A stretch of 35,980 bases of DNA, from contig MU271531.1 of NCBI GenBank assembly GCA_021432655.1, positions 13,120 to 49,099 of the forward strand, in the 5' to 3' direction. The DNA comes from Atractiella rhizophila. Its lineage: Eukaryota. A program made the translations under genes and the position numbers. This document shows, in pieces, positions 3,001 to 27,434 of the stretch. The number at the start of each line of letters is the position of its first letter. Positions within the stretch are counted from its first letter, which is position 1. The notes beneath the pieces are model-generated. The model was not told where the DNA came from. It was given only the letters and a program-made list of their open reading frames with translations, and did not search any database.

Positions 3001-4312
3001 GCAGCTGTATCTGCTGGTGGAAGATCAGCGAGGCCTGGCACACTGCATTCACAGCATGGGGGAGATCGAGCAGCGTCATGGGAAGAATGAGGAAGCACTG
3101 AAACAGTTCGAGGAGGCAAAGCAGCTGTACGTGGTGGTGGAAGATTGGCAAGGCCTGGCCCACTGCATCCGCAGCATGGGGAAGATCGAGCAGCTCCATG
3201 GGAAGAATGAGGAAGCACTGAAGCAGTTTGAAGAGGCAAAGCAGCTGTATTTGCTGGTGGAAGATCGGCAAGGCCTGGCCCACTGCATTTACAGCATGGG
3301 GCTGATCGAGCAGCGTCGTGGGAAGAATGAGGATGCACTGAAACAGTTTGAGGAGGCAAAGCAGCTGTATCTGGTGGTGGAAGATCAGCAAGGCCTGGCC
3401 CACTGCATCCGCAGCATGGGGAAGATCGAGCAGCTCCATGGGAAGAATGAGGAAGCACTGAAACAGTTTGAAGAGGCAAAGCAGCTGTATCTGCTGGTGG
3501 AAGATCGGCAAGGCCTGGCCCACTGCATTTACATCATGGGGGTGATCGAGCAGCATCGTGGGAAGAATGAGGAAGCACTGAAACAGTTTGAGGAGGCAAA
3601 GCAGCTGTATCTGCTGGTGGAAGATCGGCGAGACCTGGCCCACTGCATTTACAGCATGGGGGTGATCGAGCAGCATCGTGGGAAGAATGAGGAAGCACTG
3701 AAACAGTTTGAGGAGGCAAAGCAGCTGTATCTGGTGGTGGAAGATCGGCAAGGCCTGGCCCACTGCATTCGCAGCATGGGGGAGATTGAGCACCATCGTG
3801 GGAAGAATGAGGAAGCACTGAAACAGTTTGAGGAGGCAAAGCAGCTGTATCTGCTGGTGGAAGATCGGCAAGGCCTGGCCCATTGCATTCGCAGCATGGG
3901 GGTGATCGAGCAGCGTCGTGGGAAGAATGAGGAAGCTCTGAGACAGTTTGAAGAGGCAAAGCAGCTCTATTTAGCCCTCGAAGACGTGGGAGGTCAACTC
4001 AATTGTCTTTACAGTTATGCTTCCATTTTCATTCAGGATTCTCAGTTCACAAAGGCGATTGGGCTTTACAAGGAAGCGATCACTTTGAGTCAGACAGTGG
4101 GTGGCTATATGGAGGCCATCTGTAGACAGACAATGGCACAACAACTCTTCATACTGTCCAGGTATGCTGAAGCAAGGGAGGAAATTGAGAAGGCTCACTG
4201 GCTTTACACGGAATGCTGTGCAGCTTCAGACATTGAAGACTGTGATAATTTGCTTGACAGAATTGGACAGGGAGAGAGAGCTATGAGTGTGACAAAAGAA
4301 CCTGCTACGTAA
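1..4312 (+). CDS. Fungal NLR-like protein: probable patatin-like N-terminal domain (5'-partial), STAND/NB-ARC-like NTPase, TPR repeat array; three 1-nt frameshifts in the array
   Basis: Frame 1 is open from base 1 (HCYHRFSVDTFGDFKWQEWGRKNDAVGGTMAYME). In-frame 48-nt GT-AG intron 149-196 with GCTAAC branch site. Walker A GGAGNGKST, Walker B LLVLDNFE. 40-aa TPR units ALKQFEEAKQLY..GLAHCI.SMG.IE. ORFs 88-2031, 2057-2380, 2305-2631 and 2657-4312 join through single-base indels at about 2020-2023, 2319-2320 and 2626-2629. Confidence 0.9.
1654..3982 (+). repeat. Tandem array of about 19 full plus 1 partial 120-bp units encoding TPRs
   Basis: Unit start gcactgaaacagtttgaggaggcaaag recurs every 120 +/-1 bp: 1654, 1774, 1894, 2014, 2135 ... 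3815, 3935. Confidence 0.97.
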
Positions 4313-5780: not shown

Positions 5781-6140
5781 ACTCACCAACAAACCGGTCG
5801 CCGATCTGCCTGTTGAGGGGCAGATCGGCGCCTCGCCTAGACCTATGTTCAACAATGTGACTAGGGATTCACCCAGCGAGGCGTGTAGAGGAGTAGGACT
5901 TCTTAAAGTGAGGGGGAGGGGACCTCGTGATTGAGGGCAATTTTCGTAAATGCGACATTGGTGATGGTGCGAGAATGCAATGAGCATTCGTCTTTGACGG
6001 GCGACGCATGGACTCACCAACAACCAAGTCGCCGACTTGCCCGTTGAGGAGCAAGTCGGCACCTTGGCTTGGCCTAAGTATCAAAGACTAGGATTTCACC
6101 CGGCAAGGCATATAGGGGTGTTGGATCCCTTAAAGTGAGG
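5781..6140 (-). repeat. Two diverged ~130-bp direct repeats (5781-5913, 6012-6140) in the gypsy 3' UTR with conserved stem-loops
   Basis: Both run actcaccaacaa...cttaaagtgagg on +. Stems cgccgatctgcc/ggcagatcggcg (5799-5830) and gccgacttgc/gcaagtcggc (6031-6060). Confidence 0.85.
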
Positions 6141-7965
6141 AAGACCCTCTAGTGCTTTTTCGTCGAAGGTTACGAGAACGCGCATTTGGGCGATTTTTGG
6201 CGGAGTTTGGTATGGAATCGGGACGAACCGCGAGAAGGTGTGCAGTGTGATAGTCTCTTATAGCATCCTGCGAATTTTCTAGATCTGCGATGTTGATCCA
6301 CTCGTCCTCAGATGGTGAATACCCTTTGTATCGAACGCGATATTTGAAAACTCTATTTCGGGTACCGAACCATTTTCCATCGACAATTTTCTCCACTTCC
6401 CATTCTTCAATTCCATTCACCAATTCCGGAGGTGGTTTGGGCAACTGGACTCTGCCCGGGATGTCGTCTTCGTTGACTTTTCGTATTAGACCTACATGGA
6501 ACACTGGATGTATCTTCCATGAGGATGGCAACTCGAGTTTAAGGTTGAGGGGACCCAAAACTTGTGAAACGCGAAAAGGGCCATGCCATTTGTCCTCTAA
6601 CTTTTTGACAGGTCTCGTCAATTTGATGTTTTTCGCGCTCAACCAGACGAAATCGCCGACGTGATATTCGGGCGCCGGTGCGCGTTTTCTGTCATAATGT
6701 TTTGCCATAAGATCTGCTGCTTGCTCGAGTGCCGCTTGTGCTTCCCGGTCGGCGATTTGCATCTTTTCGACGAATTGCGCCGCCGCGGGAACGTCCTCGT
6801 CGGAGATGGGTTCAAAGGCCATGCGGGGATGTTGGCTGCAATCGAGCGAAAATGGAGTTACGCCCGTCGCCGAACTGACGCGATTGTTGAGGGCAAATTC
6901 TGTGTTGGGAAGTCCTTCCACCCAATTATCTTGAAGGTGGTTGCAGAAAATGCGCAAATATTGTTCAACCTCTTGGTTCATGCGTTCAGTCTGACCATCA
7001 CTTTGTGGGTGATAGGCTGTCGATGGTGAACCTTTGATATCTAATAGGCGAAAAAGCGCGGATGTGAATTTGGACACAAACTCTTTGCCTCGATCGAAAA
7101 TTGCAACATCGAAAAGTCCATGTAACTTCCATATGTGATTGCAAAAAAGTCTTGCAAGGCCTTCTGCATCCATCATCGAATGGGTGGGCATGAGATGGGT
7201 GCGTTTTGAGAGTCTGTCTACGATGACGAAAATCGTGTCAAACCCCAGATTCTGGGAGTGATCCAACCAAGTCCATGCTGACAATTTGCCATCGGCGCTT
7301 GGGAATGTCATTTGGTTGCAAAAACCCGACAGGTGGGGAAGGAAAGTTTTTCGTTCTGTGGCAAGTGTGGCAGGCGTTGACATAGCGGCGAACGTAATGC
7401 GCCAAACCTGGCCGCCAGTAGTACCTTTTTACGAGAGCCATTGTCGATTTTACTCCTGGATGACCGGCGATTTGCGAATCGTGCAGGTCTTGCAAAATCG
7501 AGAGGCGAATTTCGTCGTCGCGGGGAATGTAGAGTTCTCCGCGAAAATAGACAGCGCCATCGACTTCTTGCCACTCCCGTTGGCGAATTGCGTGGACTGG
7601 TTCGTCTAGGATCTCTCTCAAGGCCTTGACTACTTGTTCTTCCCGTTCGGGTACCTTTTTCATGCGTTCCAGTATACTGAACTCTGACATTTGTCTTGTG
7701 AGCGCAACCGCGCTCCCAGTCGCGTTGATCGTGATACGATCCGTGTTGAAAAAACATTCCGGGAGCAATGCTACATTGAAATTGTCGCAAGTCGCCGGTT
7801 TGTGATCTGACCGCCGACTGAGCGCATCTGGTTTTGCGGAGTTTCGTCCAGGACGGCGTAAAAGCGTGAAGTTGAAAGTTGAAGTTCAGTGATCCACCGC
7901 GCTTGTCGCCAATTTAACTTTTGTGGCATCCTGAAATATTCAAGGTTTTTGTGGTCTGTCAAGAT
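6130..7965 (-). pseudogene. Ty3/gypsy (chromovirus) pol remnant: RNase H C-terminus, integrase zinc finger and DDE core, chromodomain; frameshifted, 5'-truncated
   Basis: ILTDHKNLEYF..QKLNWRQARW (RNase H); LHDSQIAGHPG..CHTC (HHCC); SMD, FDRG, TAYHPQSDGQTERMNQ (DDE); WHGPFRV..HPVFHV (GPY/F); EEWEVEKIV..YRVRYKGYSPSEDEW (chromodomain). Confidence 0.95.
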
Positions 7966-8555
7966 CAGAAGAAGGACACATGGAGAATCGTCCGTGGTGC
8001 GAGTAGAATAGAACATTTCGCCATGACCCAGGATAGGTACTTTGATTCCGTTGCCAACTTCGAGGGTCTCATTACCCGATTCCTCTCTGAAATTGTGGAT
8101 GAGTTCCCTCCGAAACTCCGTGGGCTTAGAACAGCCTGAGTCGAGACACCTTTGATTTGAGCCGCGAAGAGAGCGATGTCGCCGAGGACAGACAAGGCAG
8201 GAGATAGAGACATGACTTTGGGAATGGGGATCTCATGTCGGACGGCTAAGTCGAGCAAAATGAGGGCATGAGCAGGCTCTGCACCATTGATATCAAGAGA
8301 ATGTGCATTGATATCCCCATTCTAACCCGGCTGATGTCACCAACGTAGCAGGCGTAGTGAGAGACTTCTTGTGTCCCAAAGCTGCCACTGACATCCTGAT
8401 GCCTATCACCCCAATTGGCATTGGTAGGGAGCACGTTCAATCCTGAGAGAAAGGAAGGAGGCATAGAAACTGTGATAGGCGTGTCCGAAGAAACAGCAAC
8501 ATTGGCGGCGAGAGATAAGGAAGCCTTCTTAGCACGGAATTGTTCGAGTTTTTCG
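7966..8555 (-). pseudogene. Ty1/copia gag C-terminal tail and aspartic protease (continuation of 19889-20975)
   Basis: My minus-strand translation from 8148: CLDSGCSKPT...LEVGNGIKVPILGHGEMF, the copia protease pattern DSG...VGNG..I.G.G. Upstream KLEQFRAKK continues gag ...FQLHPE in frame once 8556-19888 and one TSD are removed. Confidence 0.85.
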
Positions 8556-8595
8556 TATACTGGCGGGAGCCTTCAGCCCAACTCTAAGCTTATTT
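8556..8595 (+). repeat. Left terminal inverted repeat of the large element
   Basis: TATACTGGCGGGAGCCTTCAGCCCAACTCTAAGCTTATTT versus the right-end reverse complement TACGGTTGGCGAGAGCCTTCAGCTCAACTTTGAGCTAGTTT. Confidence 0.85.
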
Positions 8596-8671
8596 CGGGT
8601 GTTCACAGAATTTTCACATGGACCTTGACTGAACTGCTACCAAAGTTACAAAGCCGAGCACCAAGGAAAGC

Positions 8672-10827
8672 TAGTCTCGGGCCAGACTCCACGCGCTGCT
8701 GGATATTTGGAAAAAAGCTACTTTGCAAAAAATCACGTGCGTACACTACATTGGTAATATGAACTACTACGTCATTACAATTTAAGAAATCAACGTATCC
8801 AAAATCCAGCAGCGCTGGAGTCTGGAACCACTCGTGTGGGGAACCTGTCGAAATCCGAACCGACCATTTTTGAACGCAAATATCTCAACCACAACAGCTG
8901 GTACGGCTTTGGAGTAAGCGTGAATCCGGATAGTTTTAGCAAAATATTGGTTTGCGCGCTTTTTTGGTGAGTTTTCGTCCTTTTTTCAGCTTTGGATGTA
9001 ACCATCTTTGCAGGTCTATATCTCGTTACATACGCGGTATTGAGCTCCATGGAGCCTCAGGGAGGTCCAATGTGACCTCCTTTATCCATTCCAGGCGGCG
9101 GAACACGCAGAGATCGCATACCCACCGAGAACGACAACCATCCACCTCACCCTACCAGCGTCCTGCCAACCCCTCTTCTCGGTCGCTAGCCTCTCAAACT
9201 GCGCTGAGAAGATAAGAAAGGGCTCCCAGACTCTCTGTGAGTGTTTTCAGACCTTTAGCGCCTTCCTATCCCGATCCATCGCTCCTCTCCGGTACCGTCC
9301 TTTCACCTCCCTCCCTTTCCTCTCTCTCCATCTCGTGAAGCTTGCTAATGATCTAAAACGGCTCTAGTGACACTTACGAACGAAATCCACGTGGATCGCC
9401 AGCTCCTACAAGCACTTATGAGGAACGACACCCCTGCCTTTCTCCGCCTCTCTTGCCTTAGATGTCACTCTAAAGAGCGCCAAAGCGCTTACAAGAAGGT
9501 AGAACGGTGTACAAGGACACGTTGATGTTTTTATAAGATGATATGAGCATGTGTGGGTGGAATGATATCAAAGAGGGCGTAGGGCATTCTATTTCATGAC
9601 TCATGCTGCAGATGGACTCAACTGGTAAGTATTGAAGTTTTCAAGCTGCCAGCAGTTTCTGCATTGCAATATGTCCAAGTGTAGCTACATGAATAAATAC
9701 CTCCTGCAATCAAGATTTTACACCTGTAAGCTGACCTGAAAGGCACGCGCGAACGCATTCCGACATGCAGAATGAGAACCTGAAAAAAACTCAATACCGC
9801 CCTGACTTGTCTCCTCTTCTACGTCTAATGCTCCCACGTGGCAACGATGGATGGTATAAAGGCGGAGATGTGGAGGCACACGGGGAGGGGCAGATTGGTT
9901 CTGAGTGGTACGGTGGGTTGGTGGATCTGGCGGAGTTAGTGATATTCTTTCATAAGGAGCATGACTGCCTTCGTACTTCGTTCTAGGTGTCTCGCAGGCT
10001 CTGTAGAACGTTTGGAGGCGTCGTCCAAGCGAGGGAGAGACAAATTGCACTTGGAAAGGCGGAGGAACGACCGTTCCTCATAAGTGCTTGTAGGAGCTGG
10101 CGATCCACGTGGATTTCGTTCGTAAGTGTCACTAGAGCCGTTTTAGATCATTAGCAAGCTTCACGAGATGGAGAGAGAGGAAAGGGAGGGAGGTGAAAGG
10201 ACGGTACCGGAGAGGAGCGATGGATCGGGATAGGAAGGCGCTAAAGGTCTGAAAACACTCACAGAGAGTCTGGGAGCCCTTTCTTATCTTCTCAGCGCAG
10301 TTTGAGAGGCTAGCGACCGAGAAGAGGGGTTGGCAGGACGCTGGTAGGGTGAGGTGGATGGTTGTCGTTCTCGGTGGGTATGCGATCTCTGCGTGTTCCG
10401 CCGCCTGGAATGGATAAAGGAGGTCACATTGGACCTCCCTGAGGCTCCATGGAGCTCAATACCGCGTATGTAACGAGATATAGACCTGCAAAGATGGTTA
10501 CATCCAAAGCTGAAAAAAGGACGAAAACTCACCAAAAAAGCGCGCAAACCAATATTTTGCTAAAACTATCCGGATTCACGCTTACTCCAAAGCCGTACCA
10601 GCTGTTGTGGTTGAGATATTTGCGTTCAAAAATGGTCGGTTCGGATTTCGACAGGTTCCCCACACGAGTGGTTCCAGACTCCAGCGCTGCTGGATTTTGG
10701 ATACGTTGATTTCTTAAATTGTAATGACGTAGTAGTTCATATTACCAATGTAGTGTATGCACGTGATTTTTTGCAAAGTAGCTTTTTTCCAAATATCCAG
10801 CAGCGCGTGGAGTCTGGCCCGAGACTA
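8672..10827. mobile_element. 2,156-bp non-autonomous foldback DNA transposon with 756-bp TIRs and 9-bp TSD (AcademH-like; MULE is the alternative)
   Basis: Arms 8672-9427 and 10072-10827 are gap-free inverted repeats (one mismatch noticed, 8741/10758). TSD AAGGAAAGC at 8663-8671 and 10828-10836. Termini 5'-TAGTCTCGGGCCAGAC. No transposase in the 644-bp core. Confidence 0.93.
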
Positions 10828-11063
10828 AAGGAAAGCATGGTACGCAGATTGCATAGGTACCAAGCAGCATACATTTTTTTTCTGTTTTGCCATGAAGTAT
10901 AGAGCATTAAGACTTCGATCATATAAACAATCTTAATTGGGTCATATACCATTCAAATATTCACTTTGTTTTAGAATGAGGATTATGGAGCACTTTGGCA
11001 TTACTTAGCATCATTTAAAGATGATCGGGAAGGCTGAAAGTCCAAAGTATATTTGTAGACCCG

Positions 11064-11107
11064 TTCGGAGGGTTTCAGATCACCTGACGGAACAAAGACC
11101 CCTACGA
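11064..11107 (+). repeat. Left subterminal inverted repeat of the large element (partner 19605-19648)
   Basis: ttcggagggtttcagatcacctgacggaacaaagacccctacga matches the reverse complement of 19605-19648 at 38/44. Confidence 0.9.
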
Positions 11108-11186
11108 ATTAGCACTCAGTTTTTGTTCAAGGAAATGAAAATGGACAGTAATCATCGCAAAGCTGTATTGTAGCACTGGAAATTAT

Positions 11187-11990
11187 CTATGCTATGTTTG
11201 TTACCTCAAGCTTGTATGCTGCTTTGGTCCTACAATGAAGCGCAAATCCAAAGAAGTATGACTCCTTTCTGAGCTCATTAGCCTGCTGCAAATCCAACGT
11301 TGGGAAATCTTCTGAAATTAACCATACTGCCATTTGTGGAACGAGCAATGGTCGTAGCACCTGGTCATTAGTCCATAATGGTTTTGTTTGTTAAGAATCA
11401 ATGCTGTCAGATTGCCATTCTTGACGTAGAGTGGATTCGATAATTGATGCACCTTGAGGGCCATAGCTATGTAACGATCTACTTAGGGGTATTATTCTAA
11501 TGTTAAGATGAGTAACGTACTATCCAGCTCCGAAAAGATGATCACTATTATACTGCCATTGCTTGTCCCGTAATCGTGTTTGTAGGGATCCTCCAAATGT
11601 GTCCTGCACTTGTTTGAACATGAAAAGATTTCCAAGGTCATCCATGTTCTCCAATTTTTGTTCGACCATCAATTTGCAGCATCTTCCAAGTGCAGCAGGT
11701 AAGAGTATGAACTGAGCAAGTTATTACAACGTACCTCACAAAGTCCGCCCAGTTTACTGATGATGGCCAGCCCTTTTCCTTTCCTTTGGGGATGATAGTC
11801 TGAAGCGCATCATGAGAAAGCAAAATTCATGGCATTTTCCCAATGAGAGATTGACATGTTTTGGATTCAACAGAGTTGGATTCGGTTGCGCATCTTCATC
11901 GACCAATAGTCTTTGTAGTTTTTCCCTTAATGATTTAGGAAGCACTGAAGGCAAATATGCATCACAGAAGGGGCACAATGCTTTTCTAAG
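11187..11990 (-). pseudogene. RTC4-like domain exons, possibly the C-terminus of the alpha-kinase gene; in-frame TAA at 11391-11393
   Basis: Spliced translation: LCPFCDAYLP, GWPSSVNW, FGAGY|YGPQGASII, VLRPLLVPQMAVWLISED..ESYFFG, matching the RTC4-like pattern GYYGP.G and LVP.A..LI.ED. Confidence 0.65.
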
Positions 11991-12039
11991 AATGTTTTGA
12001 ATAAGCTAATAAATTGTATCTTAACTGAATCATGCTACC

Positions 12040-14653
12040 AGTGACTCATCCTTCTTTTGCAGTTGCAAGGGCAACTGTATCCTTTCATCCTCCTTCTGCT
12101 CGTCTTCGTGATTTCCTTCATCCTGGATGCCTGAACCAGAACCGGAAGCCTTTGGAGAAGAAAGTGAATGTTCAGGTTTGGATATAGCTTTTAATCCCAA
12201 GAGCATGCAGGTTTGCTGGCATTGATGTAAATGTTCAAAGCTTAAGATAGCTTCTGGTGAATATTGTAAGCCCCTATGCCTATCTGAATATGTTAGAATG
12301 ATTATACGGAAAGAAAATTCTACCCATTGAGGTTATCATCACAAATCACTAACACATCTGTAATGTGTGGCCAGACCCCTGTATCAATTGTATTAGATGT
12401 CAATAGCGATTAAGATCAAGTTGGCATTACCCTGCAAGTCACAAATTAACATTGACCCCTTTGTAATCTCATATACGGCGTGTTGTAAACCTAGTAAGAC
12501 GTCTATCCTTTTAAAATCTTCGGTCACCTTTTCCGATGGCTCAATCACAATCTCGATGTTTGAACTGGCATCAATCCACTTTGTCCACTTCTCTCCCATC
12601 TTGATAGCACTCTCTAGGTTTGGTTCAAGAAGCATATATTGAATTGCCAAGCCTTCCTTTTTTCCTTTCCCTCTAGCTGCCAGTGGGACCAGTCGTAAGC
12701 AGCGGCAATAGGTGTGACAAGTTGTGGGAGGAGCTGTGGAAAGTTATGCTGCCGGTCTGCTTGTACTCGTAATTTACGAGAAAGTGACTGGTTGATGATT
12801 TGTTCGAACAGACTATGGGTCCAACAAAAAGCTTGAATATCGTGGAAGCAATAACCTCATTGCTTTCGGCGACTGTCAACATACTTCCATGAAACCGTTA
12901 TCCCTTTCCCCTTTTTCCCCACTCCAACAAGCTTAATCCATTTCTTAATTACTACCTCTTTCTGATCCAAACATCCATCTTCCTGCAACCAACCTGTCAA
13001 AGCCACCCGACTAGCTCCTCGCCCTACTCCACGCTGCGAGATAACCAATCGTGCTGTTGTAAAGGAAAACATAGATAGAAAGGGTGAAGTTGAGTCTTGG
13101 CGCAATAGTTCTTCTAACGTTGATGGTTGGATCGGAATAATTCTGATCATGACGCCCCCATGAGATAAACAAGGTGGCAGGAGATCATCAGCAGCCAAAG
13201 CTGATCCCTGTTTACGCTCTTCAAATTGGAGTAAGGTCGGAGAAAGCAGAGGTAGTGCATCGGAATCGGAATGATCAACTAGCTGAGGGGGGGGAGACGT
13301 TGATTTAGGTAGAGAGCTTGATGGAGTAGAATGATCTGGAAGGGGTTTGAAATTATTCATAACCTTCCTTGGCGGACTCTGAGTGTCTGGAGAGATAGAA
13401 AGCTGTGAGAACCCCCTCTTCCTCCTTCCGTCTCCAATCCCATCTCTAATCTCATCCTCATTATTTCCAACCATGTTCCTATCATTGTCAAATAGATAGT
13501 CTTCATTGCGACTAGTGTCCTCCTTTGCTGCATGCTCGAATAGAAGTAACCAATTGTCGGCAGAGATTAGCATGACCGCACGATATTTGTTCTTAAGAAC
13601 CAACTTCTTCATTTTGGCCTTGGTATTTGTCTTCGCTTCTATGGATGAAGGGAAACTGAATCCAGCTTTCTTCAGAATATATCGAAATGGTGTGGCATTG
13701 TTTGGAGGAAGTGACAAATGAACACCTTGAGCGCTTAAAAGATGAACACATGATTCGTGAAGAGGTAGAATGTGTCCTGCTAGGTGGGAAATCTTCAAAT
13801 TGAGACTTTGAAGGCAAAGTTTGATAAGTTCCTCGTATGTTGTATCTGCTCGAACTGGATCGATTACAGCCCATATATCCATTGGTTCATTGGTAGAGCT
13901 GTTGATGGGTAAATCTGGGTGAGGCTTGCGGCTTGCGGTGTTCTTGACGACAATACCATGGGTTGGGTTCCATGTATCGTAAAAAAGCTGGACAAAGAGA
14001 GACTCTGTAACATCTTTCCACGTTCTAGGGCATCCTGACTGATCAAGCATGGATATCTTTTTAGCGAGTGCAACCTTCTTGCCATCATATTGACTATAAG
14101 CCAAATTGGTAACACTTGACTGATAGAGTACAGATCCTCCTGGAACAGTGGCTTGCTGGATTCCTAATATTACCTCATTATTACAGAATACTTCTATTTG
14201 CTTTCATGTGGAACATACCTGGAATAGAATTTTGTCGGGACTTCTGGGTTTGGCTTGATAGCTGCTTGATGTCGAACTTGGATTCTACAGATCCTGCGGA
14301 GCATGAACACAGACGCTAACAATATTTAAATATCACCCACCTCTTCCTCTTGTATTTGGTAGTACCGTTAAATTGCCAACATCTACAGGTTCCTTGTTTC
14401 TTCTTTTCCACTCATCAAAACAAGCCTGACACCAATGTCGTATCTCCTCTTGTGATCCAGCTCCGCCTTTGACTGCGACCAGATCTGAGAGGCGATATAA
14501 ATCTTTTGGCTTCCAGCAGCTACTTTTCTGACATTGATGATATGTTTGTCCTGGAAGAACGGTAAGTTCACCGACATCTACAGGGTTCATCATTGGCCCA
14601 ATCTTGACTGATGGATTGTCACAAAAATTTGAGGCTAGATAGAGAGACTTCAA
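12040..14653 (-). pseudogene. Alpha-kinase (eEF2K/MHCK-type atypical kinase) with Cys-rich N-terminal region; spliced, at least one frameshift near 12880-12920
   Basis: GVGRGASRVA (G-loop), EVVIKKW (Lys), YMLLEP, LQHAVYEITKGSMLICDLQG (H.Y...G..L.CDLQG signature), FEHLHQCQQTCMLLGL (C-terminal zinc site H.C..C..LGL at 12193-12239). Start uncertain. Confidence 0.85.
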
Positions 14654-14731
14654 ATTGAGGCGGTTGTCTCTGACTACAGCAGTTGTGGCTGAAGCTTTTG
14701 TTGTCTAGTTTTCAATTCCATCCACTTCATT

Positions 14732-15500
14732 ATGCCTCCTACGAGAGACAGAGCATGTCCTGCTCCGCCCGCAGGCTTCGATGATACCTCAAGCTCTACT
14801 TCTCGGCCAAAGCAGAAAAATCAATATAGTGTTAAACGTAAGTGTCTTAACATGTGTAAATGTTATAGTGCTCAACTCTTACATGAATATATGATTGTAG
14901 CGAGTAGTACTATTCTAGTACCTTTGATCAAGAAATATCAGCAGAGAGGCGAAACTGAGGGAAACTCGCTCATGCTTATTAATGCAGAGCTAGCAAAGAT
15001 GAAGGAGAATTCCATCAGGTGAATAGTGATACTCTCAAAGCGAATGTTAGTCCTGATTGGGTTTAAGTCTATCCCATTTACAGCGAGTTAAAAGGAGTGA
15101 GAATCTTCAAGGAGCTCGAGGTTCTGGGCACAAACAGACGAATCTTGGAAACTGTATGCTCTGGAGTTCATGACCAGGTTTCCAAATATCAGGAGCAGGC
15201 TGCTCTTTTCTCATCTACGTCAACAGATGATTCTGATTCCTCAGTATGTTTAACCATGAATAGATATAACCTAATCATTTCGGCGGCCATAGTGACACTG
15301 TGTGAGAGTTGTAAGAGAAAATAAGTTGGAGAGTTCTATGCCCAATAAAGAGTTGGAGCCCGCAAACATTTCTGGGTTGTTGGAAAGAATGATCGCTGGA
15401 CATTCGATCAGCATGACAAGGTCGGTTAAATATCCATAGTCCTTAGGGTTAATTGAGGCTGACTCATACCTTTATGTATGGAGCTGAAACGATTTGGTAT
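14732..15500 (+). CDS. Small multi-exon hypothetical gene divergent from the alpha-kinase; 3' end uncertain
   Basis: ATG at 14732, GT-AG intron-like segments (about 14838-14900, 15019-15083), charged helical coding-like segments. No family recognised. Confidence 0.4.
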
Positions 15501-15653
15501 CCGTTTTCATGTTGGAATTGAGCCATATTCTGGTAAGACAAGTGTGTCAACGGCCTTCGTCCCTCAGGCCCCTCACCCACTTGCAAGGGGCATGGCCCCT
15601 TGAACCCTACTGTGACTGTTGTCAGGGTTCGAGCCCAGTACAAAACACAATTT

Positions 15654-17630
15654 TCAACCTTTCAGAATAAAATTTCCTTGCAGGTTCAGAAAGGGGCTTG
15701 GTAGCTGTTTTCTGGTGTATTTTTTTTGTTTAGAAGGATCAGGTGTAGCACCTTGACAGATCTGATGGGTCAGTGTGGCGAGTCTGGAGATGGTGTCTAA
15801 GTTTTTATCATTGAGCTCAAGATGAGCTAACACGTTATAGTCGTCAGATAAGGGTTCTGCCTTCCTTCCAAGAACCTGAGATTTGGCCTCGCTTGTTGTG
15901 AACAATAAAGGACATGGATGAAAACAAACTTCTTGAACAGCGGCCGTCCAAAAGATATCCTCTTTCTTATGGGCCAGTTTCCAGAAAGCTGTGATCAAAC
16001 GCCATCTTGGAAGCTCTCTGCTTAACCAGTCCTCAAAATCACTAGCCTTTTTTACAGGTTGACCAGTATCGGTACGATCATGATTTCGTAGGATGGGATA
16101 GACAAACCCTTGTAATAAGGTGTGGATTAAAAGAGTGATAAAGGTTTGGCGGAAACGACCGTCTTCTATTGCTTTGGACCCTGAGGTAGGTTTCCAATTG
16201 GTTGGAGACAAACAATCCCTACAGTCTTTGAATGGCGAACTGAAGCAGGAAAGATTGAGAAAAGATCCAAAGTCGAGGGGGGTAGATCTCTTGGCTGCTG
16301 AGTCTGATGGCACTTGTCAAGGTGACCAAGCATTTGACGCCCATAGTCTAAATTACTGAGAAAGTGCGGGATCTAACACCTCTGCTGTATCGTTCTCACT
16401 TCCAAGGACAGAAAAGACCCAACCAGCCATGGCAGGAGCTTGAATCGATGTCCAGTGATGTATTCTTCGTCTGAAGGAGAGTTGGACATATTTTGCAAAG
16501 CGAAAGAGGATGTGAGCCATAGATTCAACAGTCTGTGCTACTTCAATCTTTGTAGCCAAATTAAAAAGATGGATAGGGGACTTGAGGTACTGATTGAGTG
16601 GGACTGCTCATCAGAGAGTTCTATTGAGAGCAAGAGATTTGAGATGGCAGGAATATTGTCCAATCTGATCAGTGACCGGTCCATTGACAGGAGGCCTTCC
16701 AAATCTTTCAGCTTTCCGCTCTTGAGTGATTTTCCAGCTGCATAGTATCCTTTGACAACTTCAAGCTCCTTGTGAAGGCAATTAAGACTAAGATTCTTAG
16801 TAAAGAAATCCATATTCACGGGATTCTTGATGCGGATAGGGACATTGGTTCGTGGTCGAGAGAGAGATGCAGCTTTTCTGTTTGCCTTTGTTGATGTTTT
16901 TACTCTTTTTCATCCCTGATATAGCTATGTTGATATAAGCAAAATTTCCATACCTTTTTAAGCTAGCGAAAGATGTTTGCTTACATCTTGATCTAAATCA
17001 GCCGAGTCTTCAGCTGCTTCTCCCAAGGTGTTTGTCTTCCACTATGACCGGATTAGTTGATACTCTGAAGAAATTACAAAATATGGTACCTTGTTACGCT
17101 GACCTGTAAAGTGATTATGAACATGCTGGAGAATATATTTAGGCTGAGAGATACAAATAAAAGTGGCAGAGGCCTACTGAAGAACCTTTTACAGACATCT
17201 GGCCCTGAAAGAGCACCTCACGACAATGAGAATCAGCCATTAGGATTCACTGGAAATCTGGGGGTAGTTGATGTTGAATTCAGGAGAGATAGGTACGAGC
17301 AGCTTATTGTTCAACATCCGTTTGCCTAATATATGGTCAACAATATGTAAATCCAGGTGTTAAGGCTTACAATTCCTCAATACCAACCCATAAACCTGTT
17401 TTAGCCCACGTTTTAGCTGAAACTGCATACCATAAATAGGTTATAACTTCAGATATAAGAATCTGTCTTACCAATGACTGCCTCTCATAAAACCTCCAAT
17501 CACTGAACTCCAAGCCATTCGCCTCATCCACATCCAATTCTTCATGACCAATCCCTTCGTTACAGTGTAACAGTGAGATAACCTTTGGGGAAAGCTTTCC
17601 AATTTGGCTAGGCCGAATGTTGAGTGAAAT
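15654..17630 (-). pseudogene. Disrupted coding region collinear with the TET/JBP gene (C-terminal extension or separate unknown gene)
   Basis: Same-strand ORF pieces 16538-16819, 16353-16559 and 15654-16313 linked by frameshifts or stops, with intron-like segments in 16900-17600. No family recognised. Confidence 0.5.
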
Positions 17631-19545
17631 TTATCTTCCACCACAAACAGTTTCTGAGCACTTCAGCACTTCTTCACGTCCCACAATATCTTGTGGGTCT
17701 AACTTAAGTCTTCCAATACTCTGTCGCTCGCCATTCTCTCTAGGAAGAAAAGTAATAGCATCTGTAATTTTGTTGAAATCAAACTGGATTTGATAGATCG
17801 GATTGAAGTAATGTGTGGACTTGTGTAACTGAAGTAGACGTTCATGAAGGATGGAGGTAATATGGTGTGAGGGATCACTCATGACAAGAAGACCATGTTG
17901 TGTCCAGTTCTTGTCTTTTCTTTCATCTGGAGCGGCCTCCCATGTGTGAACACGGTTTGGAATAAAACTTGATGTTGGAAAACGCTGGTGGATAGTTGTA
18001 GTTCCTTCACTAGCCTCATCCTCTTCATCTGAGTCTATGTTGGGCATTCTGAACTTTGTCTTGTGCTTTGAAGGTAAGGACTTTGTAGTGAGCTCTGTGT
18101 TGATATCTGCGGGCTGGAGAGAGAGAGGTATCTGACAGTGGATTGCCAATTCAGTTGCGTAGTTGATGTAACCAATACGAACGGCATCAGCAGGGAGTTG
18201 CTCAAAGGTTCTTTGATCCATGTCGCTTGTCGAGTCCACCTCCATCTCACCATTTGCCAAGCTCTCTTGCAAGTCCCTCAAGCTACATAACCTGCTCCCT
18301 CCATGCGGTTTCTTCCACTCAGGACCATAATGACGAAATCATCTCCAATTTCACAATATTCGCCTGAATGGACGAGACCGAATCTTGCTCCATGAATGCC
18401 TAACCAATCCAATAATTCATCAGCTCAAAGCCTTGCTTGAGCAGAAGGACATAAATTTGAAGACAAAAGGACCTACCACAGCTATGATTCAAAAAGAACA
18501 ATGCTACCGTTCTTCCCAAGATTGCGTCCTTCATATCCACATGTAGTTGGCCGTACTTTGCTAACCAGGTGCTCAAATCCTTATCTTCATGGAGAGTTGA
18601 TTTTGACCGAAGACCGTGTTGGAAAGAAGAGGTTGCTTTTGACCATAGGGATATCTCAGCAACATTGGGTTGAAGCGTGGTGAAAGTATAGTTCTTGCTA
18701 CTGCCGTATGTAAAGGGTGGACAAGTTTCGCACGCGCTTTGAGGCATTCAATATATGAGGGTCTCTCCGCCATTTCTAACACCTATCCATTGTCTCTCGT
18801 AAATGATTGGCTCATAGCGGTTTGATGATAAATAAATACATTTACCTGTATTGCAATTTCGGCATTCAACCTGTGAATCTCCTTCATGCGTTCCTCAAAC
18901 CCTTCCATCACCGCTCCTTCCTTGCCAGCTACACTAGCAGGAGGCTGCGCACGCGGCGCAATCAATCCATATGAGTGATTTACTTGTCTGCCTCCCATCG
19001 TATGCGCCCCACTAACTTTAGCTTGATGACCTAGACCTCCCTTCCAAATAGGTATCGCACCACCCAGCCTGTCTTCCAAAGCAGAATCTACGACAGGAAT
19101 ACCATCTGGTCCAAACTTTTGCCCAAAAGTAAAGGGTTTTAACTTCTCCGCCATCTTAATGACAGAAGCTCCTCTCTCTCCCATAGATTCCATTGAGCAG
19201 CGGCTGTGAGCATAAGAGATCAAGGATACTTCAGAGCAGTTGTCCTTGTTTTCTGAAAAAGTAAGAATCCCAAAGTCAATAGCTTGCATGTTGGGGATGA
19301 CTGTGCAGCGTGCACTGTAGAACTTAGGCCGGATGGCCAGCAGCAGCCAAAAGCTGAGCTTTGAGGAGCGTTTTCCCCTCTTCACTCAGATCATGGGAGA
19401 TGATCCGTACTTGATGATACGCCAGCTTGTCGGCTTTGGCGAAGATTTTGAAGGCCGGGTGCTTCTGGGCTTGAACGATGGATCCTGTTTGGAGCTGAGG
19501 GTACCAGGGTTTCTGACATAGTTCTGACGGAACTGGCCGCTAAAT
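17631..19545 (-). pseudogene. TET/JBP-family 2-oxoglutarate/Fe(II) dioxygenase, fungal transposon-associated type; about 3 frameshifts
   Basis: With introns 18783-18845 and 18400-18476 removed: LKARAKLVHP/FTYGSSKNYTFTTLQPNVA, KYGQLHVDMKD (HxD at 18543-18535), GARFGLV, VLSGR/PHGGS (distal His 18305-18303), AVRIGYINYA (2OG-binding Arg 18179-18177). Frameshifts at about 19328, 18715 and 18310. Start uncertain. Confidence 0.75.
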
Positions 19546-19604
19546 GAAGGGCGGGCTTTATGACTTTGGTTGGTTCCTTGTTCCTTTGTTAGAGGTGCAA
19601 CAAG

Positions 19605-19648
19605 TCGTAGGGGTCTTTGCTCCGTCATGTGACTTACAACCCTCCGAA
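19605..19648 (-). repeat. Right subterminal inverted repeat of the large element
   Basis: 38/44 inverted match to 11064-11107. Confidence 0.9.
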
Positions 19649-19847
19649 GGGTCCTACGAATAAAGTTCCAACTTTGAGCCTTCTGATTGCAATGATTGGC
19701 TGGAAGGTTGGGCACCCGGCTTTGTGCGGATGTAAACGGTGGACGGCGTTAGGAGGATCAAACCATTGCACACCAAGTGCACCAAATTAGTGCAGCATAC
19801 GGAATTGAGACCCGAAGTTTGTGTCAGCCACAGTACCTTTCACAAAA

Positions 19848-19888
19848 AAACTAGCTCAAAGTTGAGCTGAAGGCTCTCGCCAACCGTA
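19848..19888 (-). repeat. Right terminal inverted repeat of the large element (begins TACGG on minus strand)
   Basis: Inverted match to 8556-8595, followed on + by the TSD TTTTCG. Confidence 0.85.
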
Positions 19889-20975
19889 TTTTCGGGATGG
19901 AGTTGGAAACATTCAGCTTTCTTGTGTCCTTTCTTTTTGCAGTGATCACAAGTCCTACTGAATCTGGAACTAGCCTCCACGAAACCACAACGACTGGGAT
20001 GAACATTGTTGATACTCCCACCAGTCCCATCAGATCGTTGCATAAGAAACGCTCTGTCTCCATCTTGAGCAAGAGATTCCCTTCCCACGATCCCGCTAAT
20101 TTCTTCAACGATGGTGTCAGGGGAGATGTGCTCGATTTTGATAGGGGTTCCGGGATGTAAAAGTTCGTGTCGTTCCTGCAGAACCTTGAATGATGTCTCC
20201 CATTTGATGCTGAGAGACTCAGGAATCATCGAAAGTAGATGTAAGGAGATAATCTTGTCAGGTCCTGTAATCTTGCCGGCATATCGTTCGATCTCTACCC
20301 ACGATTGTCGAACAGAGTTGGCCCAATCCACATACGAGGACGAGGAGATGGGTTGGGAGATAGTGGAAAGGAAAGCTCGCCATGCTGTTTTAGCTTGAAG
20401 GGTACCTTCAGCCGTGCATTTGGACTGAAGAAGCTTCCAGATCATATGTGCGGTATTCTCCTCGTCACTCCATTTCAACTCTTTCGCCTTAATAACTTCT
20501 TTCAAAGCATTGTCAATCAAAGCCTTTAAGAATGCACTGGCAGCCCAATCCCCTTTCAGCCAGGCAGAATTCTCCTTGCTGAAAAGAATAGCCTGAGACG
20601 GTCCAGCCGCCTTGTAAAGCTCCCTAACTGGTCGCACCATTAGGACTTCCCCTTTGGCGTTCTCCACAATATATCCCCAAAGCATCATCGTCTTCAAGCA
20701 TTCTTTCGCCTTTTCTGACCATGACTACCAATTCGCTCGAGTGAGTTTCTCCAAAATCTTGATATTGTCTGGAGGCATGATGGGCACTTCGTCGTCGATT
20801 TCGATGGGAAGATAGAAGAGTTGTCGCATGTGAAGAAAGGAGGTGGTGAGCTGAGCAGATCGGCCGTAGATAGCGTGGGAATGCTTGGTTCTTCGATGTT
20901 GAGACCTTGGAGGGACTCCAAACATCTGGAAGAGATGGAGGAGGTTGACGGTGATCTTGGTTGCTCCTGATTCAC
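19889..20975 (-). pseudogene. Ty1/copia gag (UBN2-type) with CCHC zinc knuckle; premature TAG at 20725-20727
   Basis: KLTRANW*SWSEKAKECLKTMMLWGYI...W..GD..A...TAHMIWKLL is the copia gag pattern; CDHCKKKGHKKAEC is the knuckle; lies downstream of a copia-type PBS. Confidence 0.88.
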
Positions 20976-21804: not shown

Positions 21805-22671
21805 ACCACCAGATGGGAAAGCCCTGTGAAAGATCATAATCCAACAGTGGTTCCACTGTCTCTAGGAGGGGTAGTCTGGAGTCCAGCAATTGTAAAATTC
21901 GGTCGTAATAAGATATACTGAGCAGTACTAGTGAGAAAGGATAATAAGGCGAAAATGGAGACAGTGCAGACCGGCAAAACGTATAAGGTTTGCTGAGCGG
22001 CGATTCGTGTGAGAAAGGGAAAGCGGGGGGATAGTGCGGGCATAAGCAAAGCGGCGATGGGTAAGCACGTGATCCTATGACGTGGCAAAGTAGGTCACAT
22101 GATTTCAGATGGTGCATTTCAGTAATGCGTAGGGGCAAGCCTGACAGATAGGAAGAATCCTAGGTGACTTTCTTCTACAATGTATGCTTCCCAGTGTGGT
22201 AGGAAGAATCCTAGTCTCAACATCCTGGACAAGCTGGTCAAAGAGGTCAGTACAAACATCAAAAAGTGGCTGATAAGAGCAGTCTGCAGCTCTTGAGCAA
22301 CAGTGTTCCCTATGTGGTCAAACATTCTGTTTAGCATGCAAGAGATTCCCCACTTCTACCATCCCCTTTACTCATTTGGTACTTGGTATGAGAAGGCTCA
22401 CTGCGTCAATGCCAAATGTAACAGCCCCTCCATCTATTAAGATACTCTGCATCGTACCGTTGTGAACACCTTCAACTATCCATCAATATTGCAATATTGC
22501 ATCAATCCCACACTGGTGGAACGTACACGACGAACCAAAGGCGAACGCCGAACACGTCGCATTCGCAAAAATTTCTGCCACTTTCTCACCAACTCACGCG
22601 TCCTTTGAGATCGTTCCTACACCAGTAATAGTTAGTAATAGTCAGATTAATCTTATCACGGGTGCATAGAT

Positions 22672-24105
22672 ATGTCCGGCTCAGCCTCCTCTTCAAAATC
22701 GATATCTTTCTTCCCTGCCCAGTCATGGGTCCACTTCGTCGCAGGCGGGTGAGCCTCTCGTTGCTTTGCACCATTTCAGATTCCAGATCACTTACCATCT
22801 GTGTTGTGTCGCAGGACGGGTGGAATGTGCGGAGCCATAGCCACTGCTCCTTTTGATTTGGTAAAGACGCGGTTACAGAGCGATTTGTATGATGGGAGTG
22901 GAGGAAAGAAGGATTTGAAGGGAAAGGGGAAGGAGGTTGTTGGTCCAAGTCGGAGTGGAATCAGGAGGGCCTGGGTGCATTTTAGGGAGACAGGAGGGAT
23001 TCTTAGGTACGCTTGTCTCCTCTACTTTGTCACTAGGTTGTTTTCAATTTTCAGCGCAAGGCCGTTACCAGAGGTTATCTAATCATAATGTTGACACTCT
23101 CGTTTCTGTCTTTCGCTTGATCTCTCTTTGAATGGGTTGGACTTATGAGGAGTTGTCCATAGGGATATCTACAAATACGAAGGACCGCGTGCACTCTTCA
23201 AAGGTTTGGGTCCAACATTAGTCGGCGTAGTGCCCGCCCGGTTCGTTCCCATCTCTCCTCTTACATTCTGCTGGACTCACGACAAGAAGGCAGTTCGATA
23301 AACTTCTTCACATACGGGAACGGCAAACAAATGTATGCACATTACCTCAACGACGGCAAAGAGAATCCGGCGATTCACCTCCTCGCTGGATTCACGGCTG
23401 GCCTTGCGACCGCTACATTCACAAACCCGATATGGGTGGTGAAGACGCGACTTCAGTTGGAGAATTCCCAGCGAGAGCCGTCCAGCGCTAAACCATCGAC
23501 GTCACATGCTTCTTCCTCATCAACAGCTTCGACGTCCTCACGTCACGTCTCTTCGACCTCGTCGATAAGAACAGCAAACGCTTACTCTACAGCAGCCATC
23601 CCCCAAAAAACAACCTCTGTAATCGTCATCCGTCAGATCTTGAAAAATGAAGGTATCAAAGGGTACTATCGCGGTCTGTCAGCTTCGTATCTTGGCTGTG
23701 CGGAGGGAACGCTGCAGTGGACACTTTATGAGCAGTTTAAGCGATTGGGGAGGAGGGATGGAAAGGAAGTGGGCACCATACAGCAGATGCTGGCTAGTGG
23801 AGGGGCGAAGCTTATCGCCACTGCTATTACTTATCCTCATGAGGTGCGTGTTCTCTAACATGCTCTGGAATGCTGATCATGATGTTGATTCCTAATAGGT
23901 TGTCCGCACCCGACTCCGTCAGGCTCCACCGGCCAATGGGGAATTGAAGTATAAGGGATTGTGGCAAACTTTCCGCGTGATAGCCATGGAAGAGGGTGTA
24001 GTGGCTTTCTATGGGGGGATGAGCGCGCATCTCATGAGGGTGATACCAAATGCTGTCGTCATGTTTTACGTCTATGAAGGCGCGCTGAAATTGTTTCAAA
24101 AGTGA
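22672..24105 (+). CDS. RIM2: Mitochondrial pyrimidine nucleotide carrier (SLC25A33/36-like), copy 1, spliced
   Basis: [59 protein letters not shown]: three carrier signatures; stop TGA 24103-24105. Confidence 0.9.
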
Positions 24106-24590
24106 TGGTGAGTCTGTCAGCGTCATTTTTTTTGGTGTGACCAAATGAGCTGATGATCAGAAATGGGTAGAATTGTGTCGCGGTTATCATTATTTATCTT
24201 ACTCCCACTCCCTACGCAACCGTACGCATGCCCGATAGATCGCAATTCACGACTCTACCTATCCCTGCTTGCTCTTTACTATTAGCTTACCTAAGTAAAT
24301 ACCCCGTATCGTCCATCAGATTTTGCAAATGGATGGATTAATACCATGAAATCATTCGACCTCTCCCCCTTCTCCTCAAGGGACCATGTTTTCAAAAGTA
24401 CAAAGTTGAAGCATCAAGGAAGCACAGAAGCCAATTACCAACAAAAGAAGTACAAAGCTGAACTAAATCCCCGAAAAAGTAAAGATTGGTCGAGTAAGCG
24501 TAGATTCTCGATCAACGTCGGGTAACAGTATAAAAAAACAGCGAGCACTCACGTTCCTCCTCCATAGGCTTAGAGACCTTTTTGACCAGC

Positions 24591-25794
<1,204 letters not shown>

Positions 25795-26000
25795 ACACCT
25801 TCAACTATCCATCAATATTGCAATATTGCATCAATCCCACACTGGTGGAACGTACACGACGAACCAAAGGCGAACGCCGAACACGTCGCATTCGCAAAAA
25901 TTTCTGCCACTTTCTCACCAACTCACGCGTCCTTTGAGATCGTTCCTACACCAGTAATAGTTAGTAATAGTCAGATTAATCTTATCACGGGTGCATAGAT

Positions 26001-27434
26001 ATGTCCGGCTCAGCCTCCTCTTCAAAATCGATATCTTTCTTCCCTGCCCAGTCATGGGTCCACTTCGTCGCAGGCGGGTGAGCCTCTCGTTGCTTTGCAC
26101 CATTTCAGATTCCAGATCACTTACCATCTGTGTTGTGTCGCAGGACGGGTGGAATGTGCGGAGCCATAGCCACTGCTCCTTTTGATTTGGTAAAGACGCG
26201 GTTACAGAGCGATTTGTATGATGGGAGTGGAGGAAAGAAGGATTTGAAGGGAAAGGGGAAGGAGGTTGTTGGTCCAAGTCGGAGTGGAATCAGGAGGGCC
26301 TGGGTGCATTTTAGGGAGACAGGAGGGATTCTTAGGTACGCTTGTCTCCTCTACTTTGTCACTAGGTTGTTTTCAATTTTCAGCGCAAGGCCGTTACCAG
26401 AGGTTATCTAATCATAATGTTGACACTCTCGTTTCTGTCTTTCGCTTGATCTCTCTTTGAATGGGTTGGACTTATGAGGAGTTGTCCATAGGGATATCTA
26501 CAAATACGAAGGACCGCGTGCACTCTTCAAAGGTTTGGGTCCAACATTAGTCGGCGTAGTGCCCGCCCGGTTCGTTCCCATCTCTCCTCTTACATTCTGC
26601 TGGACTCACGACAAGAAGGCAGTTCGATAAACTTCTTCACATACGGGAACGGCAAACAAATGTATGCACATTACCTCAACGACGGCAAAGAGAATCCGGC
26701 GATTCACCTCCTCGCTGGATTCACGGCTGGCCTTGCGACCGCTACATTCACAAACCCGATATGGGTGGTGAAGACGCGACTTCAGTTGGAGAATTCCCAG
26801 CGAGAGCCGTCCAGCGCTAAACCATCGACGTCACATGCTTCTTCCTCATCAACAGCTTCGACGTCCTCACGTCACGTCTCTTCGACCTCGTCGATAAGAA
26901 CAGCAAACGCTTACTCTACAGCAGCCATCCCCCAAAAAACAACCTCTGTAATCGTCATCCGTCAGATCTTGAAAAATGAAGGTATCAAAGGGTACTATCG
27001 CGGTCTGTCAGCTTCGTATCTTGGCTGTGCGGAGGGAACGCTGCAGTGGACACTTTATGAGCAGTTTAAGCGATTGGGGAGGAGGGATGGAAAGGAAGTG
27101 GGCACCATACAGCAGATGCTGGCTAGTGGAGGGGCGAAGCTTATCGCCACTGCTATTACTTATCCTCATGAGGTGCGTGTTCTCTAACATGCTCTGGAAT
27201 GCTGATCATGATGTTGATTCCTAATAGGTTGTCCGCACCCGACTCCGTCAGGCTCCACCGGCCAATGGGGAATTGAAGTATAAGGGATTGTGGCAAACTT
27301 TCCGCGTGATAGCCATGGAAGAGGGTGTAGTGGCTTTCTATGGGGGGATGAGCGCGCATCTCATGAGGGTGATACCAAATGCTGTCGTCATGTTTTACGT
27401 CTATGAAGGCGCGCTGAAATTGTTTCAAAAGTGA
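26001..27434 (+). CDS. RIM2: Mitochondrial pyrimidine nucleotide carrier, copy 2
   Basis: Appears identical to copy 1 at offset 3329. Confidence 0.9.

Follow-up and report, generated by a model that had tools for sequence, protein, structure and literature searches.

The known systems closest to the element considered here are the TET+ IS3EU families of the rust fungi, which are reported from seven species of Pucciniales (Kojima 2025, PMC12730594, sections 3.1.3 and 4.1). In all of these rust families, the TET/JBP gene is placed between the transposase gene and an alpha-kinase gene, with the transposase and the kinase in opposite orientation, and the consensus lengths given in Table S1, part 1, of the same paper range from 8.3 to 12.9 kb. 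According to its section 3.1.3, these families have a target site duplication (TSD) of 6 bp, terminal inverted repeats (TIRs) longer than 30 bp and ends of the form TAYGG..CCRTA, and the cited part of PMC10045372 describes the IS3EU superfamily by its TA..TA termini and by a TSD of, in most cases, 6 bp. TET genes are also reported to be transferred frequently between superfamilies (PMC12730594). Here, we describe an element of 11,333 bp that lies at positions 8556-19888 of a stretch of contig MU271531.1 (contig positions 13,120-49,099) of Atractiella rhizophila, a member of the Pucciniomycotina, class Atractiellomycetes. All coordinates are positions in the window, that is, the whole stretch of 35,980 nt that was analysed.

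The block carries an alpha-kinase gene and the remnant of a TET-like gene, and it is read here, with a probability of about 0.6, as a non-autonomous, transposase-less element of IS3EU type, from a lineage that carries a TET/JBP-like gene beside an alpha-kinase gene. That it was inserted as one unit and that it belongs to a diverged multi-copy family is directly observed. The superfamily to which it belongs is a matter of weighing its ends, its TSD and its cargo against two kinds of element that could also account for them, and against the possibility of a hidden transposase.

Insertion into a gag open reading frame

The element reads 5'-TATACTGGCGGGAGCCTTCAGCC ... GGCTCTCGCCAACCGTA-3' between its boundaries, and the right TIR, read inward from the end of the element, begins TACGG..GAGCCTTCAGC. 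A repeat search of the window returned the terminal inverted pair 8561-8595 and 19848-19882 (35 nt, 83%). A degenerate TIR core of 23 nt occurs at exactly two sites in the 36-kb window, in inverted orientation and one at each end, and none of 100 shuffles did the same. In an end-to-end alignment made after in-silico removal of a nested foldback, the first 40 columns include 29 identical ones. The same alignment contains a subterminal inverted repeat of about 95 nt, some 200-400 bp inside the ends; the right copy lies 205-286 bp from its own end and the left one, mirrored, approximately 317-398 bp from its own.

On the minus strand, removal of the block together with one TSD copy joins ...ECFQLHPE to KLEQFRAKK... 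in frame and thereby restores a single open reading frame (ORF) with a CCHC knuckle. The uninterrupted arrangement also exists as DNA. Logan contigs of two public runs, X1 and X2, which come from one sample of one study and are possibly the source of the assembly itself, were aligned to positions 7600-20900 of the window at a likeness of at least 85%. One contig in each run has the empty site, with a joint 8549->19889 that skips 11,339 bases, and a second contig in each run has the same junction in a diverged background, which means that an uninterrupted form of the host repeat is present in the same genome. A single cut-and-paste event, duplicating 6 bp, brought the block into the gag ORF of a retrotransposon. 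A segmental duplication and an assembly chimera were considered as the origin of the block and rejected, as the exact TSD of 6 bp, the pairing of the TIRs and the contigs with an empty site tell against them.

The initial annotation, made from the sequence of the window, had proposed a single insertion with the TSD TTTTCG and imperfect TIRs of about 40 bp, on which the boundaries, the core search and the empty-site contigs now agree. The in-frame rejoining that it described (FQLHPE to KLEQFRAKK) is confirmed by the minus-strand reading, and the uninterrupted copies of the host repeat, which it had named beforehand as a check, were seen in both runs. The subterminal inverted repeat that it noted is present, but at 82 nt in the repeat search and about 95 nt in the alignment rather than at 44 bp. 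Its host, a copia gag, stands as a CCHC-bearing gag ORF, but the copia label is weak: the two Pfam matches of this ORF, to zf-CCHC (E 0.42) and Pol_BBD (E 1.9e-4), are both below cutoff. About 500 bp further along, the host ORF is replaced by a very high-copy Ty3/gypsy integrase-chromodomain fragment. This fragment abuts the gag/Pol_BBD ORF at ~7880-8040, so that the host retroelement is itself truncated.

Further copies, which it had proposed to look for, exist as well. Alignments to positions 7600-20900, which take in the element and its repeat-rich flanks, were made by 698 contigs of X1 and 625 of X2, with likeness from 85 to more than 99%. In the likeness classes 99 and above, 95-99, 90-95 and below 90%, the numbers of contigs are 222, 196, 214 and 66 for X1 and 195, 184, 180 and 66 for X2. 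Among them, pieces 300-1,000 nt long that differ by 1.5-5% cover both the kinase and the TET-like parts. Paralogous proteins are encoded at no fewer than two further loci of the genome: P0003 (BT69DRAFT_1297867; 1,872 residues), on another contig of 85 kb, is 94% identical over exon B of the TET-like gene, and P0004 (447 residues), on another contig of 23 kb, is 90% identical over the matched part. Given the diverged contigs and the paralogs on other contigs, the element is one member of a diverged multi-copy family. A metagenome scan with a 21-nt TIR core gave three matches, none of them with a TA terminus. These were dismissed as relatives and put down to chance, their context being high in GC or coding-like and unrelated.

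Two repeats hit the element after its own insertion. The larger is a foldback with a centre of 644 bp between arms of 756 nt that are 100% complementary, and its 9-bp TSD and long TIRs hint at a Mutator-like element, possibly non-autonomous. Two contigs of X1 and one of X2 have a joint 8662->10828 that skips 2,165 bases, with nine ambiguous letters, and so represent the host element, in other copies or alleles, without the foldback. Minus the foldback and its TSD, the element measures 9,168 bp. The smaller is a short, very high-copy repeat, recognized by a summed contig depth of 8,000-11,500 in the bins 15148-16035 against about 300-1,100 beside them (10-30 times the surroundings; summed depth is not an estimate of copy number) and by loose contig ends at 15538, 15572, 15661 and 15694/15697. 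It contains GGTTCGAGCCC, and ARAGORN found no tRNA and Rfam no match in 15538-15697. It is possibly a short interspersed nuclear element or a miniature inverted-repeat transposable element.

The alpha-kinase and TET-like genes

Three domains had been assigned to the cargo by the initial annotation, an alpha-kinase, an RTC4-like domain and a TET/JBP dioxygenase, and they fared differently. The alpha-kinase is the firmest. An ORF at 12396-12743 (minus strand) matches the Pfam family Alpha_kinase (PF02816) with an E value of 5.5e-7, at 30.3 bits against a cutoff of 21.3, and the domain splices cleanly across two GT..AG introns, reading ...ICDLQG, then VWPHITDVLVICDDNLN, then DRHRGLQYSPEAILSFEHLHQCQQTCMLLGL. 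The motifs DLQG, TD and H..H.C...C are readable in the spliced kinase, and we presume them to be the motifs that serve catalysis (DxQG) and zinc binding (H/C) in alpha-kinases. In this copy, the alpha-kinase/RTC4-like gene has kept an open reading frame. For the 448-residue N-terminal region, a search among proteins of 785-2,240 residues (4,477 candidates) gave one match, the region itself.

At the C-terminus of the kinase, two partial matches to RTC4 (PF14474) were found. Residues 733-781 of the gene model P0001 match positions 12-60 of the profile (E 0.0035, 17.9 bits), and the ORF 11190-11390 (minus strand) matches positions 81-120 (E 0.0041, 17.7 bits), with a cutoff of 23.7 bits in both cases. 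The two matches are collinear, and an RTC4-like domain is likely in this position, though unproven.

The TET-like gene adjoins the alpha-kinase gene and is located between the kinase and the right end. It is best followed in the paralog P0003, where the motifs ...MGG.., ..STLHEDKDLSTW.. (HxD), ..HGGRFGLV.. and ..VIMVLNGRNPHGGSRLCSLR.. follow one another, and HED, GGRF, PHGGS and SRLCSLR stand in both P0003 and the window in the order expected for TET/JBP. Dioxygenases of this kind are characterized by a double-stranded beta-helix, an iron triad HxD...H and an Arg that binds 2-oxoglutarate. By eye, these stretches resemble the PU-type domains of Table S1 of PMC12730594, for example ...NETHFDSDANNW..., ...GGQFTFRDF... 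and ...HHHQT.... This motif order and likeness, together with the alpha-kinase neighbour, make a TET/JBP identity probable.

The copy in the window has decayed. Compared with the frame of P0003, it has one-base indels near 19326 (where a TAA is created), near 18714 (TTT for TTTT) and near 18308 (CC for CCC), and three stop codons lie between 17178 and 17400 on the minus strand, where P0003 has Q, R and R. Two of the three indels sit in short homopolymer runs, where assembly errors are possible; the three nonsense codons, as they read, cannot be explained by homopolymer errors. Stop codons in the place of Q, R and R are consistent with C-to-T transitions (CAA, CAG or CGA to stop), as would arise by deamination of methylated cytosine or by a process like repeat-induced point mutation. 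The spectrum of substitutions across copies, in the contigs of X1 and X2, has no overall direction.

The public gene models of this region look like annotation artefacts of DNA rich in transposable elements, because P0002 and P0003 fuse ORFs of such elements and P0001 is mis-spliced in the kinase domain. P0001 (786 residues) splices out the alpha-kinase core, which is why it gives no Alpha_kinase match. P0002 starts in the flanking gag, reads through the TIR and joins the TET-like exons, and it evades the disruptions of the TET-like gene by exon skipping and a change of frame. P0003 joins a hAT-like transposase to the TET-like gene. The window can thus serve as a caution on gene calling, where ORFs of transposable elements may be fused and a kinase domain mis-spliced in public models.

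Superfamily assignment

It had also been claimed that the block has no transposase and is of IS3EU type. There are 195 stop-to-stop ORFs of at least 35 residues that overlap the element, and 154 of these were scanned against Pfam at E<=1; the other 41 are located within or next to the nested foldback or extend beyond the element. No rve, DDE, hAT, KDZ/CxC or other transposase family was found in the 154, in keeping with the claim. The stretch that matches the paralog starts 76 bp from the right end, which leaves no room for a transposase gene there; by a second comparison, the first such stretch is only about 380 bp away from that end. As for the IS3EU label, the element shares with the IS3EU/GingerRoot superfamily its TA..TA termini (5'-TATAC ... 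CCGTA-3') and its 6-bp TSD, read at one copy. The TIR of 35-40 bp and the right end CCGTA fit the TET+ rust families with their TAYGG..CCRTA ends, as does the alpha-kinase, but the left end TATAC departs from them. The IS3/IS481-like DDE transposase, which belongs to the definition of the superfamily, was not seen among the scanned ORFs. A non-autonomous member would lack a transposase, however, and its absence does not exclude derivation from IS3EU. Neither a hAT element nor a member of the Kyakuja-Dileera-Zisupton (KDZ) or Plavaka groups fits as well: the 6-bp TSD, the ends TATAC/TACGG and the absence of a hAT domain are not those of a hAT, and the TSD, the termini and the absence of KDZ and CxC Pfam domains are not those of KDZ or Plavaka.

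A number of observations weigh against the assignment to a TET-carrying IS3EU lineage. The ends, the TSD and the cargo are the whole basis of the superfamily label, the left end is TATAC and not TAYGG, the 6-bp TSD was read at a single copy, and the two runs that supply the contigs are one sample and may be the source of the assembly. The TIR cores of the element and the motif LHEDKD are absent from the text of Table S1 of PMC12730594, in the first 400 letters of each cell. Both RTC4 matches fall below the Pfam cutoff, and the TET-like gene of this copy is, going by its reading frame, a pseudogene relative to P0003. The TET/JBP identity itself, while backed by the order of motifs, drew no support from searches. 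Pfam gave no TET/JBP match on the ORFs, on P0002, on P0003 or, at E<=10, on a stretch of 330 residues; a phmmer search of PDB gave no match to the TET-like protein; phmmer with exon A against 1.84 billion representatives found the window's own model only; the Atlas held no usable match for exon B and gave scores of at most 0.84 for residues 940-1250 of P0003; and a single-sequence AlphaFold model of the TET-like part was unusable, with a predicted local distance difference test score of 35.7. The silence of Pfam is to be expected if the gene is of PU type, since TETs of this type are recognized by HHpred only (PMC12730594, section 2.1). Finally, P0003 has some 780 N-terminal residues with hAT-type motifs directly upstream of the TET-like part and in the same orientation.

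The last of these points is the starting point for a different reading, in which the family is a hAT family with 6-bp TSDs, the autonomous form is the P0003 locus, with a hAT transposase, the TET-like gene and presumably the kinase, and the window copy derives from it by deletion of the transposase that had stood between its right TIR and the TET-like gene. The first ~780 residues of P0003 contain, in this order, DGWT, RCFDHILNL (CxxH), PTRWNG (RW) and SVDVERAFSGG, which we take to be the signature of a hAT transposase, and the Atlas gives weak leads for P0003 to the hAT-derived families ZBED1_RNase-like and DUF659 (scores 0.81-0.84). This hAT-like part has no match in the window and occupies, upstream of the TET-like gene, the position expected of a transposase, and hAT families with TET genes and TSDs of 5-7 bp have been described (PMC12730594, section 3.1.2). 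When a TIR-like sequence was looked for at the P0003 junction without an anchor, the result was not significant: 182 of 200 shuffles reached the score, as did 35 of 351 other windows.

Pfam, on the other hand, found no family at E<=1 in P0003 or in its first 774 residues. hAT elements have TSDs of 8 bp, rarely of 5-7 bp, and short TIRs that start with YARNG, a rule to which the termini TATAC/TACGG do not conform. An anchored alignment of P0003 residues 778-812 to the translated terminus beat the shuffles (p 0.004, with a start chosen post hoc), and the mirrored subterminal repeats argue that 19600-19888 is a true terminus, with the hAT gene outside the element or nested. P0002 provides a case in which gene callers fused a flanking transposon ORF to the TET-like gene through the TIR. 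P0003 and the window are firmly homologous up to ~19798-19826, and over the last 60 nt the anchored and unanchored tests disagree. The described hAT7 elements have CAACGG ends and 7-bp TSDs, and PMC12730594 reports an alpha-kinase partner for the IS3EU families but mentions none for hAT7. From the symmetric subterminal repeats, the non-hAT termini and the kinase partner, a hAT ORF outside the element or nested is favoured, and a hAT origin of the block is unlikely.

The block might instead be a TIR element of some other, perhaps unclassified superfamily that acquired the kinase and the TET-like gene independently and whose IS3EU-like ends and 6-bp TSD are coincidental. The element offers no transposase by which it could be classified, its left end departs from TAYGG, no sequence-level match to the published families was found in the first 400 letters of the Table S1 cells, and TET genes move often between superfamilies, as said above (PMC12730594). 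Coincidence would have to account for five independent agreements with the TET+ IS3EU families, however, namely TA..TA, the 6-bp TSD, TIRs longer than 30 bp, CCGTA and the alpha-kinase, and of the other groups known to carry TET genes, KDZ and Plavaka are a misfit, with TSDs of 7-8 bp and CA..TG, or of 2-3 bp (PMC12730594, in the parts cited). Such an origin appears decidedly improbable.

Least credible, with a very slim chance, is an autonomous element whose transposase went unrecognized in a region that belongs to no family. There is space for one in the ~600 residues downstream of the TET-like core and the ~520 upstream of the kinase domain; Pfam places neither region in a family, and the searches made found relatives of them nowhere but in this genome. 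There was no DDE-like signal, however, the TET-like frame carries stops and frameshifts in this copy, and the published relatives, as described in PMC12730594, encode a separate and recognizable transposase.

For the non-autonomous IS3EU-type element that we prefer, mobilization would depend on the DDE transposase of an autonomous IS3EU relative, acting in trans and recognizing the terminal 40 bp along with the subterminal repeats. The TET-like enzyme of intact copies might oxidize 5-methylcytosine on the element, which would then resist silencing based on methylation. Anti-silencing by TET oxidation has been proposed for the whole TET+ group (PMC12730594).

The features of the element and of its host are collected in Table 1. 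Elsewhere in the window, a NACHT-TPR gene of the fungal NLR type occupies positions 1-4309, with a TPR part in which a 120-nt unit is repeated in an array of 20 (1546-4126). Many of these units are 90-94% identical to one another, a pattern typical of rapidly evolving repeat domains. To the right of the element, at ~22321-28980, a segment of about 3.33 kb is duplicated in tandem (spacing 3,329-3,330; blocks 95-100% identical), each copy of which has one mitochondrial-carrier gene and one DAHP-synthase gene.

Table 1. Features of the element and its host repeat, by position in the 35,980-nt window (a dot in place of a strand where the feature has none)
Feature	Position	Strand	Basis
Left TSD copy TTTTCG, 6 bp	8550-8555	.	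Boundary reading; empty-site joint 8549->19889
Right TSD copy TTTTCG, 6 bp	19889-19894	.	Boundary reading; empty-site joint
Left TIR, starts TATACTGGCGGGAGCCTTCAGCC	8556-8595	+	Boundary reading, repeat search, core search, end alignment
Right TIR, reverse complement starts TACGGTTGGCGAGAGCCTTCAGC, end = CCGTA	19848-19888	-	Boundary reading, repeat search, core search, end alignment
Left subterminal repeat, inverted partner of 19602-19683	11029-11110	+	Repeat search, 82 nt, 79%; end alignment
Right subterminal repeat	19602-19683	-	Repeat search, 82 nt, 79%; end alignment
Alpha-kinase gene with C-terminal RTC4-like region (own model P0001, 786 residues)	11190-14704	-	99% identity, Pfam, splice reading
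First large exon of the kinase gene, 448 residues	12860-14203	-	99% identical to P0001
Alpha-kinase core	~12040-12900	-	Pfam and splice reading
RTC4-like pieces	11190-12005	-	Pfam matches below cutoff
TET-like gene remnant, homologous to P0003 residues 810-1868	15909-19812	-	Paralog comparison
Putative dioxygenase core	~18308-19325	-	HEDKD motif in 18475-18717
Nested foldback, 2,156 bp	8672-10827	.	Repeat search; arms 8672-9427 and 10072-10827
9-bp TSD of the foldback, AAGGAAAGC	8663-8671 and 10828-10836	.	Boundary reading
Short very high-copy repeat, ~160 bp	~15538-15697	.	Summed contig depth, loose contig ends
Interrupted retrotransposon gag ORF, upstream part with CCHC knuckle	19895-20724	-	ORF reading, profile matches, gene model P0002
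Continuation of the gag ORF beyond the insertion	8249-8549	-	ORF reading
Very high-copy Ty3/gypsy chromovirus fragment (RNase H end, Integrase_H2C2, rve, SH3_Tf2-1, Chromo)	6133-8232	-	

Comparison with known elements

KDZ and Plavaka elements, whose transposases are of KDZ or CMCT type, are likewise fungal DNA transposons with a TET/JBP passenger, but the element differs from all of them as they are described in PMC12730594: Kyakuja lacks TIRs and combines a 7-bp TSD with CA..TG termini, the TSD of Dileera is 8 bp long, and Plavaka has a TSD of 2-3 bp and termini of TGT..ACA or CATCA..TGATG. The TET+ hAT7 elements of Puccinia, too, are TIR elements of Pucciniomycotina with a TET gene of PU type (PMC12730594, section 3.1.2); the differences lie in their TSD length, their start, CAACGG, and the alpha-kinase, of which that paper makes no mention for hAT7.

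With the TET+ IS3EU families of the rusts, of the type of IS3EU-1_PGra, IS3EU-2_PGr and IS3EU-2_PTrit, the element has in common the 6-bp TSD, TIRs of more than 30 bp, TA..TA and the right end CCRTA. Also shared with these families, as far as the cited sections and Table S1 describe them, are the pairing of a TET-like gene with an alpha-kinase gene, the size class of 8-13 kb and a host from the Pucciniomycotina. The element differs in being without a transposase, in its left end TATAC in the place of TAYGG and in the decay of its TET-like gene. The IS3EU/GingerRoot superfamily is defined by an IS3/IS481-like DDE transposase, and there is none in the scanned ORFs of the element.

The initial annotation was aware of no published IS3EU-type element carrying such cargo, which does not hold: PMC12730594, published in 2025, has IS3EU elements with TET and alpha-kinase genes in rusts. 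The string "Atractiell" does not occur in the text of Table S1 of that paper, nor RTC4, which the region fused to the kinase here resembles, in its main text. In the literature consulted on alpha-kinases and fungal DNA transposons, nothing relevant was found beyond the same paper, and that consulted on transposable elements of Atractiella had nothing further on such an element. New here are the class of the host, the lost transposase and the fusion to an RTC4-like region, whereas IS3EU cargo consisting of TET and alpha-kinase genes was already known.

Of all features of these elements, the constant pairing with an alpha-kinase, which here has an RTC4-like region fused to it, is understood least. 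In the one copy examined, the kinase is open while the TET-like gene is broken, which would suggest that the kinase is either a core accessory factor of these elements or a factor co-opted by the host. A wider proposal, which we put forward tentatively and consider doubtful as a whole, is that the link between IS3EU, the TET-like gene and the alpha-kinase is older or wider than the rusts, that it takes the form of a transposase-free, multi-copy cargo element in Atractiellomycetes, and that the kinase has such a core or co-opted role. If the IS3EU reading is true, the lineage extends from the Pucciniales, and one family in Tuber, to a second class of Pucciniomycotina, and it spawns non-autonomous derivatives that retain the cargo of their relatives.

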